This document shows positions 1 to 55,805 of a stretch of 64,000 nt of DNA, piece after piece. A model generated the notes under the pieces. That model saw only the letters and a program-made list of their open reading frames with translations. It was not told where the DNA came from and searched no databases. Both the position numbers and the translations under genes were made by a program. Position 1 is the stretch's first letter, and every line of letters begins with the position of its first letter. The DNA lies in contig SVAP01000004.1 in NCBI GenBank assembly GCA_015059335.1, positions 20,258 to 84,257 on the forward strand, given 5' to 3'. The stretch comes from Bacillota bacterium. Its GTDB lineage: Bacteria > Bacillota_I > Bacilli_A > RF39 > UBA660.

Positions 1-142
1 CAGACAAGAAAAATGGAGATCAGAGAAAAAGAAAATAAGATTTATAATAGAAATAATTTAAAAAGATAATAAATTTATAGCGAAAAGACATAATATAAGA
101 TTTCATAATTCCTAAATTATAATTGGATAAAATGATATATAT

Positions 143-6644: not shown

Positions 6645-7736
6645 ATGTTTGGATTAGAAATGGATCAATTAGCAAAAATAAAGGTAATAGGTGTTGGTGG
6701 TGGAGGTAATAATGCTGTAAACCGAATGATAGAATCTGGAGTTAAAGGTGTTGAGTTCATTGTTGCAAACACTGACTTACAAGTGTTAAATGCTTCAAAA
6801 GCTCCAATTAAAATTCAATTAGGTGTATCCTTAACTGATGGATTAGGTGCTGGATCAAACCCAGAAGTTGGTAGAGAAGCAGCATTAGAGTCTAAAAAGG
6901 AAATTGAAGAAATTTTAAAAGGTGCTGACATGGTGTTTGTTACTTGCGGTATGGGTGGTGGAACTGGTACCGGTGCTGCTCCTGTAATTGCTGAAATCGC
7001 ACAAGATTTAGGTGCATTAACAGTTGGTATTGTTACAAAACCATTTAGTTTTGAAGGTAGAAAAAGAATGGAACACGCAATGGGTGGTCTAGAAGAATTA
7101 AAAAAACATGTAGATACACTAATTGTTATTCCAAATGATAGATTAAGAGAAATAATTGATAGATCTACTCCAATGCTTGAAGCATTTAGAGAAGTAGATA
7201 ACGTGTTAAGACGTGGTGTTCAATCAATATCTGACTTAATAGCAGTAGCTGGGTTAGTTAACCTTGACTTTGCTGATGTTAAAACAGTTATGAAAGATAG
7301 AGGAAACGCTGTAATTGGTATAGGTATTGGTGTAGGTGAAAATAGAGCTATTGAAGCTGCTAAACAAGCGGTATCAAGTCCATTATTAGAAACATCTATA
7401 TCTGGTGCAACTGATGCTATTATAAATATTACTGGTGGTGGTAACTTAACGTTATTTGAAGCAGAAGATGCTGCTCAAATAGTTAGAGAAGCTGCTAATA
7501 CTGAAATCAATACAATATTCGGTGCAGTAATTAATGAAAACTTAACTGATGAAGTTATTGTTACAGTAATCGCAACAGGTTTTGAAGAACCAGCTGAACC
7601 ATTATATCAATCATATACTAATCAAAAAAGAGAAGAAGTAAGAAGTACAAGAAGTACTTTACCATTAGATAATGATGATGACGATGATTCTGATTTAGAT
7701 ATCCCTCCATTCTTAAGAAGCAAAAGAGGATTTTAA
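6645..7736 (+). CDS. ftsZ: Cell division protein FtsZ
   Basis: [20 protein letters not shown] tubulin signature, NLDFADV, C-terminal DIPPFLR. Confidence 0.99.
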
Positions 7737-21420: not shown

Positions 21421-21500
21421 ATGTTTGTAGGGCCTCTAACTCTACAACCGCACAGAAAAGGTTAGAAACTTTTAGTACCTTAATGGCGAGTCTTAGAATA
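21421..21500 (+). ncRNA. L21 ribosomal-protein leader RNA
   Basis: Follows TTGACT-17-TAAAAT; contains ACCGC...GGCGAGTC elements recalled from L21 leaders; lies directly before rplU; boundaries approximate. Confidence 0.7.
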
Positions 21501-21520
21501 TTAAATAAGGAGGTAATAAG

Positions 21521-50125: not shown

Positions 50126-51907
50126 ATGAATAAAGAAAATAGACCATCAATAGAAAAACCATGGTTAAAATATTATGAAGGGGATTTTAGTGAAAAAGAT
50201 ATACCTAAAAAATCAATATATCAACTTGCAATAGATTCTAATAAATATAATATGAATAATATCGCAATTGATTTAAGAATGTGTATAAATAATTATGAAC
50301 AATGTTTTACAATGACATATAATGATTTTTTTAAAGAAATTAATAACAATGCAAAATCATCATCAGTAATGGGAATTAAAACTGATGAAATTGTACCAAT
50401 GATAGTACCAAATATACCTGAAGCTAGAACGCTAACTTATGCAAATAGTATAATTGGAGCAACTACATATGCAATTTCACCATTATTACCAGTAAAACAA
50501 TTAGAAAAAATTTTAAAAGAAAATCAAATTAAAAATATTTTTGTTTTCAGTGCTTTATATGATAAATACAAAAGTGCGTTACAAAGTGATAGTTTAGAAA
50601 ATGTTGTGGTTTTAAGTGCAGAATCTTCTAAATCTGAAAGTATAGAAGCATTAAAGAAAATTAAAAATGAATTAGTTAATAAACAAATTATTCCATGGAA
50701 TGAATATCAAAATTACAGCAAAGAAATTAAAGAAAATTTGAAACCATATTATAAAGATAATCATACTGCGATTATTGTTGGAACTAGTGGTACTACAGGA
50801 ACATCAAAGGGAGTATGTTTAAGTGATAAAAATTTAAATTCAGCAGCACTATCTTATATAAATGGTAAAGTTTTTGAAGGGTCATATTTAGATGCATTAC
50901 TTCCTTCAATTGTTTATGGAACAGTTATGTCTCACTTACAAGTTGTTGATGGAAAACATGTGTATTTAGTGCCAGAATTATTAACAACAAATATCTCTAA
51001 AGCTCTATGCGCTACAAAGGCAGATGTTTTTGCAGGTGGACCTGTTCATTACATTAATATTAACGCTAGTGAGGAATTTAAAAATGGACAAATGCCAAAA
51101 AGAAATATTTATCTTTCAGGTGGTGCATCATTACCAAGCGATATAGAGAGTAAACTAAATGGTGTTGGTGCCGGATATTCAGAAGATGAAGTCAATAATG
51201 ATATAATTGTTAGACAAGGATATGCACTATCAGAAACTTGTGGACTTGGAACTATTGCAAAAAGAGGTGCATATACATTTGGAAGTGTTGGAATTCCTAT
51301 GTTATATAATACAATTGGAATATTTAAGCCAGGAACCGATGAAGAGTTAGGTTATAATGAAAATGGTGAAATTTGTGTTAGTGGTCCAAGTGTAATGCAA
51401 GGATATTTAAATAATCCAGAAGAAACTGCAAAAGTTTTGATGGAACATAGTGATGGAAAAATCTGGGTTCATACAAAAGATATTGGTTATATGAATGAAG
51501 ATGGAAAAGTATTCCATGTTGATAGAATTAAAAATATATTTATGAGAACAGGATTTAATGTACATCCTACACAAATTGCTGAATTTATAGATACTATTCC
51601 ATATGTTAAAAATTCTGCAGTAATTGGATTTGAACATCCAGAAGAGCAAAATGTACCAGTAGCATTTATAGAATTAGAACCAAATGTTCTTAATAATAAA
51701 ACACAAGAAGAAATCATACATGAAATAAGTGAACAATGTTATGCAAATTTAGAAGAAACATCTATTCCAGTTGATTATGTAATTGTAGATTCAATCCCAA
51801 TTAATGTTGGTGGAAAAATAGATGTTGAAAAAATTAAAAAGGAATCTAATATCGATTTTATGAAAAATCAAAAAATATTAAAAAAAGAAATAAAATTTAA
51901 TAAATAG
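50126..51907 (+). CDS. Class I adenylate-forming enzyme (acyl-CoA synthetase-like)
   Basis: TSGTTGTSKG P-loop, GYALSET, TKDIG..DRIK, GGKID. Confidence 0.9.
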   Translation: MNKENRPSIEKPWLKYYEGDFSEKDIPKKSIYQLAIDSNKYNMNNIAIDLRMCINNYEQCFTMTYNDFFKEINNNAKSSSVMGIKTDEIVPMIVPNIPEARTLTYANSIIGATTYAISPLLPVKQLEKILKENQIKNIFVFSALYDKYKSALQSDSLENVVVLSAESSKSESIEALKKIKNELVNKQIIPWNEYQNYSKEIKENLKPYYKDNHTAIIVGTSGTTGTSKGVCLSDKNLNSAALSYINGKVFEGSYLDALLPSIVYGTVMSHLQVVDGKHVYLVPELLTTNISKALCATKADVFAGGPVHYININASEEFKNGQMPKRNIYLSGGASLPSDIESKLNGVGAGYSEDEVNNDIIVRQGYALSETCGLGTIAKRGAYTFGSVGIPMLYNTIGIFKPGTDEELGYNENGEICVSGPSVMQGYLNNPEETAKVLMEHSDGKIWVHTKDIGYMNEDGKVFHVDRIKNIFMRTGFNVHPTQIAEFIDTIPYVKNSAVIGFEHPEEQNVPVAFIELEPNVLNNKTQEEIIHEISEQCYANLEETSIPVDYVIVDSIPINVGGKIDVEKIKKESNIDFMKNQKILKKEIKFNK

Positions 51908-51984
51908 GATACGAAATGTATCCTATTTAATTTACAAAAAATTAGTAATATGTTATTATTTTTTTATAAGGTAGGTGTTATAAA

Positions 51985-53766
51985 ATGATTAGTGTTTCTT
52001 TTGCGATTTGTTGTTTAGTGTTTTTATCAATTATATCAATTGTATATTTTTCAAAAAAACGTATAAAAAACATGGATAATAAAATATTTTCAATTTTAAT
52101 TATTTTAAATTTAATTGGAATTTGTATTGATGTTTCTGGATATTTTGCTTTTAAAGCACTAGGGGTAGATAATGTATTAAATATATTTATCTCAAAAATT
52201 TATTTAATATATTATATTTCATTTATTTTTTGCCTTACTATTTATGTATATAATATATCATTTAAAAATTTAAATAAAATTTTAAAAACATTTATTACTA
52301 TTTTTGCAGTATTATGTACAATTGTATTTATATTACCAATTAGTGTAACAATGAAAGACAATACAGCATTCTCATATGGGCCTAGTGTTAATTTAGGATA
52401 TGTATGTGTATTTGGTCTTACTTTTGCGATGATTATTATTTTACTAATAAATATTAAGAAAATAAAATCAAAAAAATATATGCCAATTTTTGCCTTTGTA
52501 ATTTTGACTTTTTTAGCATTCACAATTCAAAAAATTAATCCAGATATTGCATTATTGTTATTATCAAATTCAGTTGTTACGACACTTATGTATTTTACAA
52601 TTGAGAATCCAGATGTTAAATTAATCAACGAATTAAATGATAATAGAGTATTAATTGAAAAAACAAATGAAGAAAAATCTAACTTCTTATTTAAAATGAC
52701 TGCAGAAGTTAGGCATCCAATAGATTATATATATGAAACAAGTAAATCATTACTTAATGAAACAGATCCTGAAAAATTAAGTAGAGCAATGTCGGTTATT
52801 AATAGTAGTTCAAAAAAAGTTTCATATTTAATAAATGAAGTATTAAATGTATCATCAATTGATATTAAAAAACTAAAAATAGTTAATACTAAATATAATT
52901 TTTATAATATCATTAGTGAAATACAAGCTAGGACAAATCAAGAAAACACAAAAAATATTGATATCAGATATGAAATAAGTCAAGATATTCCTGAATCATT
53001 ATATGGTGATGCAATTAAGATAAAACAAATAATTATGACAATACTTTCTAACTCACTTAAATATACCAATAAAGGTTTTATAGAATTAAGTGTATCGTCA
53101 ATGATTAAATATGATGTATGTAGACTAATAATCTCAATAGAAGATTCAGGTATAGGTATGGATATCGCAAAAGTTAATGATTTATTGGAATATGATGAAG
53201 AAATGAGCGAAAATGATTTAAAAACTTTAGGTAAAATAGATTTAAATTTAAATATTGTTAAAAAAATTATTAAATATCTTGGTGGATCAATCATGATTAA
53301 AAGTGAGGTAGGAAAAGGTTCTGAATTTATTATTGTATTAGATCAAAAAATAGATTTAAATAGCAATTATAATGAATCTGATAAATATACATCGTTTGTA
53401 CAAAAGAAAACAAAGGTTTTATTAGTTGATGACAACATGGAAGAATTAAGTACAATTGAAAATATTTTAAATAAAAGTAATATAAGTTATACATCCACAA
53501 CATATAGTAAAGATTGCCTTGATAAAATCAACAATAACTATAAATATGATATAATAATAATTAATGATGAAATGCCAGAATATAGTGCATATGAAACACT
53601 AAAAAAATTAAAAGAAATAAAAGGATTTAATATTCCAGTGGTAGTTATTCTAGATAAGAAAAAAGATTTCATGAAACAACACTACATAGAAGATGGATTT
53701 AAAGATTATATTTTAAAAGAAAAACTTGATAGAGAAATAAAAAGAGTAATTAATAAATACTTATAA
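51985..53766 (+). CDS. Membrane hybrid histidine kinase/receiver protein with degenerate phospho-sites
   Basis: About 7 TMs, N-box ILSNSLKYT, G1 EDSGIG, G2 SEVGKGSEF, receiver LVDD; H-box reads MTAEVRHP. Confidence 0.85.
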   Translation: MISVSFAICCLVFLSIISIVYFSKKRIKNMDNKIFSILIILNLIGICIDVSGYFAFKALGVDNVLNIFISKIYLIYYISFIFCLTIYVYNISFKNLNKILKTFITIFAVLCTIVFILPISVTMKDNTAFSYGPSVNLGYVCVFGLTFAMIIILLINIKKIKSKKYMPIFAFVILTFLAFTIQKINPDIALLLLSNSVVTTLMYFTIENPDVKLINELNDNRVLIEKTNEEKSNFLFKMTAEVRHPIDYIYETSKSLLNETDPEKLSRAMSVINSSSKKVSYLINEVLNVSSIDIKKLKIVNTKYNFYNIISEIQARTNQENTKNIDIRYEISQDIPESLYGDAIKIKQIIMTILSNSLKYTNKGFIELSVSSMIKYDVCRLIISIEDSGIGMDIAKVNDLLEYDEEMSENDLKTLGKIDLNLNIVKKIIKYLGGSIMIKSEVGKGSEFIIVLDQKIDLNSNYNESDKYTSFVQKKTKVLLVDDNMEELSTIENILNKSNISYTSTTYSKDCLDKINNNYKYDIIIINDEMPEYSAYETLKKLKEIKGFNIPVVVILDKKKDFMKQHYIEDGFKDYILKEKLDREIKRVINKYL

Positions 53767-53796: not shown

Positions 53797-53812
53797 TTTA
53801 TAGGTGGTAAAC

Positions 53813-54163
53813 ATGAAAAAATTAGTTGTAATAATTAGTTTAATATTATTTTTAATACCTAATAAGACTTATGCACTAGGGGAGTCTTCATCATCTATTA
53901 CAGTTATGGATATGGATACTGGTAGAGTTTTATATAGTAAAAACCAAAGCGAGAAAAGACTTATTGCATCTATTACAAAAATAATGACTGCGATAGTTGC
54001 GATTGAAAGTGGTAAGCTAAATGATATAGTTGTAGTAGATGATAGTATTTTAAAAGCGTATGGTTCTGGTATTTATATTGAAATAGGTGAACAAATAAGA
54101 TTAGAAGATTTAGTGTATGGTCTTATGCTTAGAAGCGGTAATGAACTAGCAATTACGGAATAG
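53813..54163 (+). pseudogene. dacB: 5' fragment of a DacB-like S11 D-Ala-D-Ala carboxypeptidase, interrupted after the SGN motif
   Basis: Signal peptide, IASITKIMT (SxxK) and LRSGN (SxN), then ELAITE-stop; no KTG motif or C-terminal half in the window. Confidence 0.8.
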
Positions 54164-54328: not shown

Positions 54329-55102
54329 ATGTCAGTATTTAAAATTGAAAAGAATAAAAATTATACAGTAATGAGTAATTATCATTTAAGAGATAAAAAT
54401 TTAACTTATAAAGCAAAAGGTCTATTATCGTTTATGTTAAGCTTACCTGAGGATTGGGACTACTCACTTGCAGGGTTATGTGCTATTAGTAAAGAAAGTA
54501 GAGATGGAATAAGATCCATATTAAAAGAATTGCAAGAACATCATTATGTTGAAATAGAAAAGGTTAGAGGGGATAAAGGTTATTTTGAGTATAATTATTT
54601 GATATATGAAATACCACATTTTATTGAAGTAGAAAAAGAAAAAACTAATCCAGATATGGAAAATCCACACCTGGATAATCCAAATGTGGAAACAACTACA
54701 CAAATAAATACTAATATAATAAATACTAATAAACAAATAGATAAAGATGATAAAACCATTTCATCTTTTTTTATACCTGAAGAACACAATATTTTGACAT
54801 TAGAATTAGTCAATAGGGGATATATAAATGAAACTGATACACAAATATTTTATTATGATAAATTATTTGAAGATTTATTAAGTGAAGGTAATTCGTATAA
54901 AGATTTAGTTCAAATAATTCATTACATCATTCCTAGAGTTGTAAATAGAAAGTTTAAAGATGAAGATGGCAATGATATAAATAATAAATTTGGATATTTT
55001 AAAAATGCTATAATTAGTAATATTAAAAAATTAAATTATGATTACGAAGATTTATGGGGAGAAGATGAGTATGATTGGTTAAATGATGATTTAGAAAGAT
55101 AA
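54329..55102 (+). CDS. Phage/ICE-type replication-initiator-like helix-turn-helix protein
   Basis: KNKNYTVMSNYHLRDKNL..AKGLLSFMLSLPEDWD..ESRDGIRSILKEL..Y, typical of Firmicutes element replication HTH proteins; RBS AGGAGGAGG. Confidence 0.8.
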   Translation: MSVFKIEKNKNYTVMSNYHLRDKNLTYKAKGLLSFMLSLPEDWDYSLAGLCAISKESRDGIRSILKELQEHHYVEIEKVRGDKGYFEYNYLIYEIPHFIEVEKEKTNPDMENPHLDNPNVETTTQINTNIINTNKQIDKDDKTISSFFIPEEHNILTLELVNRGYINETDTQIFYYDKLFEDLLSEGNSYKDLVQIIHYIIPRVVNRKFKDEDGNDINNKFGYFKNAIISNIKKLNYDYEDLWGEDEYDWLNDDLER

Positions 55103-55112
55103 AATTATACAC

Positions 55113-55228
55113 AAAAAAAATCGTCTCTTTACTAGCAGACGACCTACTACTTAACCTATATACTACATTACTGCATAGGTTATGTCAGATTTCACGGCAC
55201 TACTTAATACTACTTGTGTCATCTGACA
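55113..55228 (-). ncRNA. Candidate ~115-nt three-hairpin sRNA with repeated UAGUA motifs
   Basis: TTGACA-18-(TG)TATTAT promoter at 55263-55234; stems TGTCAGAT/ATCTGACA, TAACCTAT/ATAGGTTA, TCGTCT/AGACGA plus T8. Confidence 0.6.
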
Positions 55229-55327
55229 AATTAATAATATCATAAATTGTAATATATTGTCAATAATTAATTTTTTAAAGTTTAATATTAAATATTCAAT
55301 ATAGAATAATTAAGTATTTAATTCGTA

Positions 55328-55564
55328 CTATTTTCTATATTTTAAAATATCGTTTACATCACAATCTAATGCAAAACACATTCTTGCTATTATATCTATA
55401 TCTATTCTAATTACACGATTATGATAATAACGATTAACTAAATCATAATTAACTGCAATCATAGTACATAGTTTATTTCTACTTATATCTTTTTTATCTA
55501 ATACTTCTTTTAAAGTAATTTCTAATTTCCCATAATCTTTTAATGTATAAATATTATTATCCAT
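55328..55564 (-). CDS. XRE/Cro-C1-type HTH regulator
   Basis: LKEVLDKKDISRNKL..RIDIDIIARMCFALDCDVNDIL; ATG 55564 after GAGGTGG. Confidence 0.88.
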   Translation of the reverse strand: MDNNIYTLKDYGKLEITLKEVLDKKDISRNKLCTMIAVNYDLVNRYYHNRVIRIDIDIIARMCFALDCDVNDILKYRK

Positions 55565-55805
55565 AATTCCACCTCTCATATTTTAATTATTTATTGATTA
55601 AAATATAAAACTTTAAAGTTATATCCAATTTAATTATATTTGAAAATTATAAATTAAAAAATTACACAAAAATATTGCAATATTACTTATATTATTCTAA
55701 ATAATGCAATATTTTATACAAAAAATGTAAAATATCGTTAAAATAAAAGATTTTATGTTATAATTATATATATAAGGATAGAAGTTATATTGAGGTGATG
55801 TAAAA

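Follow-up and report, generated by a model that had tools for sequence, protein, structure and literature searches.

A motif-rich small RNA family on mobile elements of gut Bacilli and its possible role as a decoy for an RNA-binding factor

In the window, that is, the whole 64-kb stretch of DNA that was analysed, a short intergenic region carries on its minus strand the signals of a small RNA (sRNA) gene, with an XRE-type regulator gene on one side and a convergent replication gene on the other. The features of the locus are the following, those on the minus strand being given in the direction of transcription:

53804..54163, plus strand: N-terminal part only (119 aa) of a D-Ala-D-Ala carboxypeptidase gene, dac', which abuts the element
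54329..55102, plus strand: Rep-like gene of 257 aa (cluster c1) with an HTH_36 N-domain, convergent with the sRNA
54646..54731, no strand assigned: iteron-like direct repeats inside rep, two copies of TAATCCARATRTGGAAA at 30-bp spacing and two copies of AATAAATACTAATA
55328..55579, minus strand: XRE/HTH_26 regulator gene of 83 aa, directly upstream of the sRNA and on the same strand
55263..55258, minus strand: -35 hexamer TTGACA
55242..55234, minus strand: extended -10 element TGaTATTAT (TATTAT at 55239..55234)
55227..55113, minus strand: predicted sRNA transcript of ~115 nt, from G 55227 to the end of U8, both ends being predicted
55227..55184, minus strand: hairpin 1, with outer stem GUCAGAU/AUCUGAC, inner stem CAC/GUG and loop AAGUAGUAUUAAGUAGUGCC
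55182..55152, minus strand: hairpin 2, with stem UAACCUAU/AUAGGUUA and loop GCAGUAAUGUAGUAU
55151..55143, minus strand: single-stranded linker AGUAGUAGG between hairpin 2 and the terminator
55142..55121, minus strand: intrinsic terminator hairpin UCGUCU-GCUAGUAAAG-AGACGA, with the motif-bearing loop GCUAGUAAAG
55120..55113, minus strand: U8 tract, 3' end of the terminator (whole terminator 55113..55142)

Both promoter elements were located by direct reading and by a promoter scan. The spacer between TTGACA and TATTAT is 18 nt long on the minus strand and has the TG at its end, and this extended -10 promoter scores 11 out of 12, being the second-best promoter match in 3.5 kb. The predicted start, G 55227, is the first base of hairpin 1. 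Reading of the minus strand therefore confirmed the original prediction of a three-hairpin sRNA that starts at the base of hairpin 1 and ends in a stem plus U8, and all the repeated motif strings that had been listed for its loops and linker are present, the loop of hairpin 1 containing AAGUAGUA-UU-AAGUAGUG. The position between the XRE gene and the convergent replication gene was likewise correct, as was the absence of an ORF, since no ORF of at least 40 aa was found between 55103 and 55327; the only frame at the locus, of 26 aa, has its start upstream of the -10 box and lacks conservation among relatives. The RNA has a minimum free energy of -33.8 kcal/mol (z = -3.26), and none of 200 shuffled sequences folded equally well. 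It contains AGUA 8 times versus 3.09 ± 1.38 in 200 dinucleotide shuffles, none of which had more than 7, and at the DNA level there are three copies of TACTAC within 64 nt at the sRNA gene versus 53 copies on the two strands of the 64-kb window together. The gene is single-copy in its 1.3-Mb genome. The best explanation for 55227..55113 is an independently transcribed sRNA gene, with a putative promoter of the sigma-A type and a predicted intrinsic terminator. It had been taken for an unannotated RNA, and the Rfam search agreed with this: at gathering score it gave no family, and a limit of E ≤ 10 brought up two snoRNA matches only, both due to chance; the sole Rfam family in the window is the ribosomal protein L21 leader (RF00559) at 21436-21503 on the plus strand, with 54.5 bits.

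We have found a family of RNAs that includes the window RNA and has about 50 distinct members at 64 loci, all of them in MAGs of uncultured gut Bacilli or in metagenomes from gut or rumen. Two relatives were present among 60 related genomes, one in a dac'-Rep-RNA arrangement and the other between two XRE genes near a serine recombinase. A pattern search for the 3' part in 185,579 species genomes yielded 30 true loci, all of them in gut or rumen Bacilli MAGs, and a looser pattern added about 28 loci from metagenomes. Among 401 genomes of the taxonomic family to which the window belongs, a covariance model detected the RNA in only 9, two of which have it twice; covariance model R1 gives the window RNA 99.1 bits (E 2e-16). 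No family member was found in phage or plasmid records, where the RNA used as a DNA query gave AT-rich promoter matches or none, and the viral contigs searched with two family patterns contained no true member. We have found no description of the GNAGUA motif or of the RNA family in the literature. Judged from its sequences, this is an sRNA family whose only carriers are integrative elements in a single family of gut Bacilli with small genomes.

All members have in common a 3' module consisting of the linker G(U/C)AGUAG, 1-4 nt and a terminator with the loop CUGC-WW-GUAU-WG; the linker is the most conserved copy of the motif and lies always 1-4 nt ahead of the terminator stem. Upstream of this module, three classes can be told apart. 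Class II RNAs have a single hairpin and about 62 nt, class I RNAs (including the one in the window) have two or three hairpins and 88-155 nt, and in class III RNAs (126-185 nt) a 12-bp stem closes a C-poor loop of ~110 nt, in which 8-nt units like UUGUAGUA, AUGCAGUA and GAAGUA follow one another in tandem. The predicted transcripts of the family are thus between 62 and 185 nt long. A promoter of the form TTGnnn-16..19-TAnnnT was present at the right distance in 46 of the 50 unique members, with a spacer of mostly 17 nt, and in most members an extended -10 (TGn) precedes TAnnnT. Every member ends in a stem followed by at least 6 U, and the positions of promoter and terminator are conserved across the family.

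The collection of homologues made it possible to examine the covariation that the original prediction implied. On a plain MAFFT alignment, which was not fitted to any structure, RNAalifold predicted three helices; among the 11 sequences of this alignment 95.8% of the cells pair, versus 30-39% with the partner slid, and five pairs of helix 2 show compensatory changes. In the covariance model (CM) alignment of 39 distinct sequences, which is fitted to the model structure so that its pair counts are inflated, 95.1% of the cells pair versus 33-46% when slid, and compensatory changes occur in 21 of the 24 pairs. Changes on both sides were counted in 104 cells of the CM alignment versus 24.9 ± 4.4 in shuffles (0 of 500 as high), cells that do not amount to as many independent events because many family members are closely related. 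All 11 pairs of helix 1 have both-side changes somewhere in the family in the same alignment, and the closing stem of class III covaries as well (GAUA/UAUC versus GCUA/UAGC). Furthermore, ~96 of 820 cells in the CM alignment (~12%) are G-U pairs, which would be mismatches on the opposite strand, and this indicates that the fold exists on the transcribed strand only. The covarying structure, the strand mark left by the G-U pairs and the positionally conserved promoter and terminator support the interpretation of the locus as a probable RNA gene.

These data bear directly on a DNA-level explanation, according to which the TACTAC repeats would bind Rep or another DNA-binding protein, as iterons, centromere-like sites or operator arrays, and the hairpins would be incidental. 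A rep gene does adjoin the locus in many cases, and arrays of 7-8 bp repeats are known as binding sites of ribbon-helix-helix proteins on Firmicute plasmids. Moreover, some viral contigs (L138, L233 and L251) have triple direct repeats of GGTAGTAGG or GGTAGTAAGG with inverted copies ~90 nt away. These arrays look like DNA-binding-site arrays more than RNAs, and the matches of the loose array pattern in viral contigs were mostly coding sequences or simple repeats. Against a DNA element stand the compensatory changes and the G-U pairs that mark one strand as folded, the conserved positions of the promoter and of the U-tract terminator, and the orientation of the motif relative to transcription, which is always the same, convergent c2 3' ends included (see below). 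The TACTAC-iteron origin that had been considered as an alternative also fails on comparative grounds: no such repeats or RNA were found beside (downstream of) eight Rep homologues of 64-85% identity, and other iteron-like repeats lie inside rep itself. Together with the strand-specific structure, this makes the DNA-level explanation very improbable.

The Rep-like c1 protein matches phage replication-initiator and DnaD-like PHROGs families. Besides the direct repeats listed above, the rep gene contains inverted repeats at 54648-54690, and the direct repeats resemble the internal origins of phage replisome-organizer genes; these repeats inside rep are more likely than the TACTAC sites to be the origin, an assignment that we infer from their arrangement. 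Rep c1 was present in 9 of 9 RNA-bearing genomes versus 84 of 401 overall, so that only 9 of the 84 genomes with this Rep have the RNA, and Rep c1 and the RNA were on one contig in all seven carrier loci whose coordinates were compared. As the RNA always occurs with Rep c1 but is absent beside close Rep homologues, it appears to be an accessory module and not the origin. At another locus (L083 376-2932), the Rep homologue beside the RNA matches in two pieces ~1.7 kb apart, as if split by an insertion.

The RNA was always located within mobile-element modules, in four layouts. The first one, XRE, RNA, convergent Rep and dac', is that of the window and also of L080, which has the same sigma-factor cargo. 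In the second (type B), a 4-5 kb core comprises the RNA, a gene called c2 (181 aa), XRE, Rep, a 66-aa gene and a large serine recombinase. In the third, to which most class III RNAs belong, the RNA lies downstream of a VirD4 coupling-protein gene in a relaxase-encoding conjugative module; around the class III RNA of L021 only unclassified neighbours were seen. In the fourth, the RNA directly follows an XRE gene with two HTH. No protein family is common to all 64 loci within 6 kb, and a conserved small protein adjoining the RNA was sought there and not found.

Some further observations concern the edge of the element. The dac'-Rep-RNA layout occurs also in G013, L016, L017 and L080, and dac is cut after ~117-136 residues right beside the Rep gene in several genera (window, L010, L016, L017 and L080). 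The C-terminal remainder of dac' was not found in the genome of the window, which has an intact paralogue on contig C8, and there is no recombinase between dac' and rep in the window, in contrast to L033 and L038. In addition, a gene pair encoding an AMP-binding enzyme and a hybrid histidine kinase (window 50126-53766) adjoins the RNA also in L024, L036 and L057. The pair precedes dac'-Rep in the window, where it converges with the RNA, and comes immediately after the class III RNA in conjugative elements; its presence beside the RNA in two arrangements may reflect an integration hot spot.

The arrangement of the genes also allows for a cis-acting role, in which the sRNA or its terminator would control read-through from rep or c2 by antisense or transcriptional interference. 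In most class I and II loci the RNA is indeed tail-to-tail with rep, c2 or another gene, and on the rep strand no T-run follows the hairpin, so that rep transcripts could enter the RNA gene. However, the facing gene varies with the type of element, and the class with the giant loop has co-directional downstream genes. Such a convergent unit, which we consider distinctly improbable as the main function, would also not account for a loop motif that is kept and multiplied on stems that drift.

Each of the 50 unique RNAs has between 1 and 16 GNAGUA and up to 21 AGUA, and the family total of AGUA is 431 versus 161.8 expected. The motif has the consensus WWW-G-U-AGUA, and the spacing between copies peaks at 3 and 8 nt; the second base of the hexamer is free (U, C or A), and hexamers often stand in pairs 8 nt apart. 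The motif is displayed single-stranded in loops and linkers, including the loop of the terminator. The stems vary across the family while loops and linkers retain G-N-A-G-U-A: six or more unrelated stems bear the loop UGCAGUAAUGUAGUAU, which occurs in hairpin 2 of the window RNA, in L052, L080 and L083, and twice in L100, and the terminator stems UCGUCU/GGGACGA, UUACCU/GGGGUAA and ACAACU/GGGUUGU share the loop CUGC-WW-GUAU, the stem having been replaced and the loop kept in L052 and in L070/L093. Loops that are kept on unrelated stems, together with covarying stems, show that selection acts on the exposed loop sequence and on pairing as such.

The same motif is present at other 3' ends. Apart from the sRNA gene, the 1.3-Mb genome has just two significant GNAGUA clusters, both of them at 3' ends of mobile-element genes and shortly before terminators. 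One consists of five GNAGUA at the 3' end of a cro-like gene (L054 5130-5210; G000 contig C8 ~311130-311210), which sits in a small island with int, cI(S24), cro, xis-like and DnaD-like genes and is followed by a terminator with the loop AUGCAGUAUC. The second cluster lies within the 3' UTR of a c2-like gene, ahead of its terminator (L055, G000 contig C11); at L055 5237-5494, 2.3 kb from this gene, there is a close paralogue of the 83-aa XRE protein of the window. When the two clusters were compared to the covariance model of the RNA, no remote homology was detected (E > 0.5).

The c2-family genes have a conserved GUAGUA...GCAGUACCCCUAAAC element 3' of the gene in 10 of the 12 genomes examined (L058-L069), in which 2-4 copies of G(U/C)AGUA directly past the stop codon precede GCAGUACC(C)CUAAAC; a terminator usually comes 15-25 nt after the element. 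The type-B loci share this element (for instance L013 1955-1974), and there the 3' end of c2 faces the sRNA, each of the two having the motif on its own sense strand, which argues for a signal at the RNA level. On one viral contig (L249, minus strand ~7050-7130), an extended -10 promoter is followed by AUAAGUAGUAAAGUAGUAAAGUAGUAAAG, an A/U stem and CACCCCUAAGA, a stretch that resembles the c2 3' element and lies between the next gene and a gene whose C-terminus, judged by eye, is ArpU-like. The c2 protein has no Pfam or PHROG family, and its predicted model (pLDDT 84) gave no fold match in the PDB. We considered it as an obligatory partner of the RNA and rejected it, as it is present in only 2 of the 9 RNA-bearing genomes.

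A possible interpretation, and the one that we tentatively prefer, is that the sRNA is a multivalent decoy or scaffold for a putative sequence-specific RNA-binding factor. It is suggested by the exposed motif in loops and linkers, the free base within it, the regular 8-nt register and the copy number between 1 and ~20. The module would be a hairpin with an arbitrary stem, or a linker, that shows GNAGUA in single-stranded form. The factor would be a single-strand RNA binder, most likely an oligomeric protein from the host or the element, and it could also read the GNAGUA clusters upstream of terminators at the 3' ends of c2-family and cro-like genes. By titrating it, the sRNA could alter the fate of these transcripts, as CsrB does with CsrA. 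We infer the transcription of the gene, the factor and its titration, next to gene signals, a conserved structure, loop selection, copy-number variation and element restriction that the sequences show. The known candidates for such a partner can be discarded: Hfq (PF17209) was found in 0 of 9 carrier genomes, with a negative tblastn in G000 as well, CsrA (PF02599) gave no match over the cut-off in 9 of 9 carriers, and TRAP (PF02081) and HutP (PF09021) were each found in 0 of 9. The control genomes were positive in these searches, B. subtilis being the control for TRAP and HutP, and all four proteins are excluded as partners.

The exposed motif could also be read by another RNA, the sRNA acting in trans by base pairing, with GUAGUA as repeated seeds for UACUAC-like sites in mRNAs. 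The C-rich loops of RsaE/RoxS or LhrC are seed regions of this type that pair with mRNAs, and the carriers studied here lack Hfq, like many Firmicutes that have loop-seed sRNAs; the motifs are, moreover, single-stranded in loops and linkers. But neither the window nor the genome contained a complementary cluster or an extended target; the best blastn-short matches had 11-13 nt at E > 1, and an RNAduplex scan of translation start regions gave no difference from background (-24 ± 5.5 kcal/mol). A free second position in the hexamer would suit recognition by a protein better than by one fixed target, and ten to twenty copies per RNA exceed any known seed arrangement. We therefore regard base pairing as an unlikely main function. 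The same results give no support to the C4-like antisense regulator that had been suggested at the outset, no UACUAC cluster or extended complement being present in the window or genome, and no TACTAC cluster was found in the 64-kb window outside the RNA gene. C4 RNA (P1/P7) and ColE1 RNA I resemble the window RNA in being small multi-hairpin regulatory RNAs in the regulation or replication region of an element; unlike them, however, it has no complementary targets that we could find and no Rfam match, and its loop motif has no counterpart there.

A further explanation is that the repeats mimic the site of an endoribonuclease, either a toxin or an RNA-targeting defence nuclease, and that the RNA inhibits or saturates this enzyme as a decoy substrate or RNA antitoxin. 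The family shares with ToxI of type III toxin-antitoxin systems a repeat RNA between promoter and terminator and a location on mobile elements, and its sporadic, accessory occurrence and tandem short repeats would agree with an antitoxin, as would the one weak PADLOC match of the c2-like protein to Csx1 (E 1.2e-4). The units of ToxI, however, have ~36 nt compared to 8 nt here, and there is no conserved toxin gene on the same strand past the terminator, the downstream gene being convergent or variable between loci. As c2 is also missing from most carriers and has no recognisable nuclease fold, an antitoxin seems quite unlikely.

The decoy interpretation is best appreciated against the RNAs that are known to titrate or to be bound by proteins. 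Like CsrB, RsmZ and RsmY, the family described here consists of stand-alone sRNAs with a promoter and an intrinsic terminator and a short motif in many loops and linkers, the copy number varies among homologues, and similar sites are found in mRNAs. The sponge logic of the CsrB/RsmZ-like RNA that had been proposed for this locus is consequently retained, with the motif kept in loops in 1 to 16-21 copies, whereas membership in that family is not: the CsrB/RsmZ/RsmY motif is A(N)GGA and not GNAGUA, the GGs of the window RNA are only in the stem of hairpin 2 and at the junction of linker and terminator (AGUAGUAGG) with no GGA formed, neither CsrA nor Hfq is present in the nine carriers, and there is no Rfam match. 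Furthermore, CsrB, RsmZ and RsmY are encoded on the core chromosome and their mRNA sites are at ribosome-binding sites, whereas this sRNA is on mobile elements and its candidate sites are at 3' ends before terminators. CrcZ and CrcY of Pseudomonas, which titrate an oligomeric RNA-binding protein (Hfq/Crc), likewise have repeated short A-rich single-stranded motifs, and AGU-AGU formally fits their A-R-N repeat, but none of the carriers encodes Hfq, and the RNAs of the present family have another architecture and resemble CrcZ and CrcY neither in sequence nor by Rfam.

The Bacillus RNAs bound by TRAP or HutP are a third point of comparison, as they also have a regularly spaced NAG-containing array directly before or in an intrinsic terminator. 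Their arrays of (G/U)AG or UAG triplets are read by a ring-shaped oligomer. Here the spacing is 8 nt instead of 5-6 or 7, the array makes up a small transcript of its own or a 3' UTR and not the 5' leader of a biosynthetic or catabolic operon, and the TrpBP and HutP families are absent from the carriers. As far as sequence can show, the RNA family is new and would work like a known kind of regulator with a new motif and host range.

To our knowledge, protein-titrating sRNAs have been described for very few proteins (CsrA, Hfq/Crc and RNA polymerase), almost all of them in Proteobacteria. The family would represent the same sponge design with a different motif, on mobile elements and in a lineage without the usual RNA chaperones. 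If a partner exists, the RNA could serve as a bait for finding an undescribed RNA-binding regulator or nuclease in a large group of gut bacteria that are uncultured, and it would show that mobile elements carry tunable sponges. A more far-reaching and rather doubtful version of this idea is that these Hfq- and CsrA-less gut Bacilli, or their elements, possess a new sequence-specific regulator or nuclease that reads GNAGUA clusters beside terminators and that an expandable sponge RNA of the elements, with 1 to ~20 sites, neutralises or hijacks; if true, this would be a new axis of post-transcriptional control or anti-defence, found from the RNA side. Even if no partner is found, RNA databases gain a clean new family of ~50 sequences that covaries strongly and grows in modules, through the duplication of hairpins and repeats. 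This growth can be followed in the closest relative of the window RNA (L100 3038-3148), in which promoter and terminator are nearly identical and hairpin 1 is swapped for a second copy of the hairpin-2 loop module, a replacement that we take as evidence for evolution by duplication or replacement of modules.
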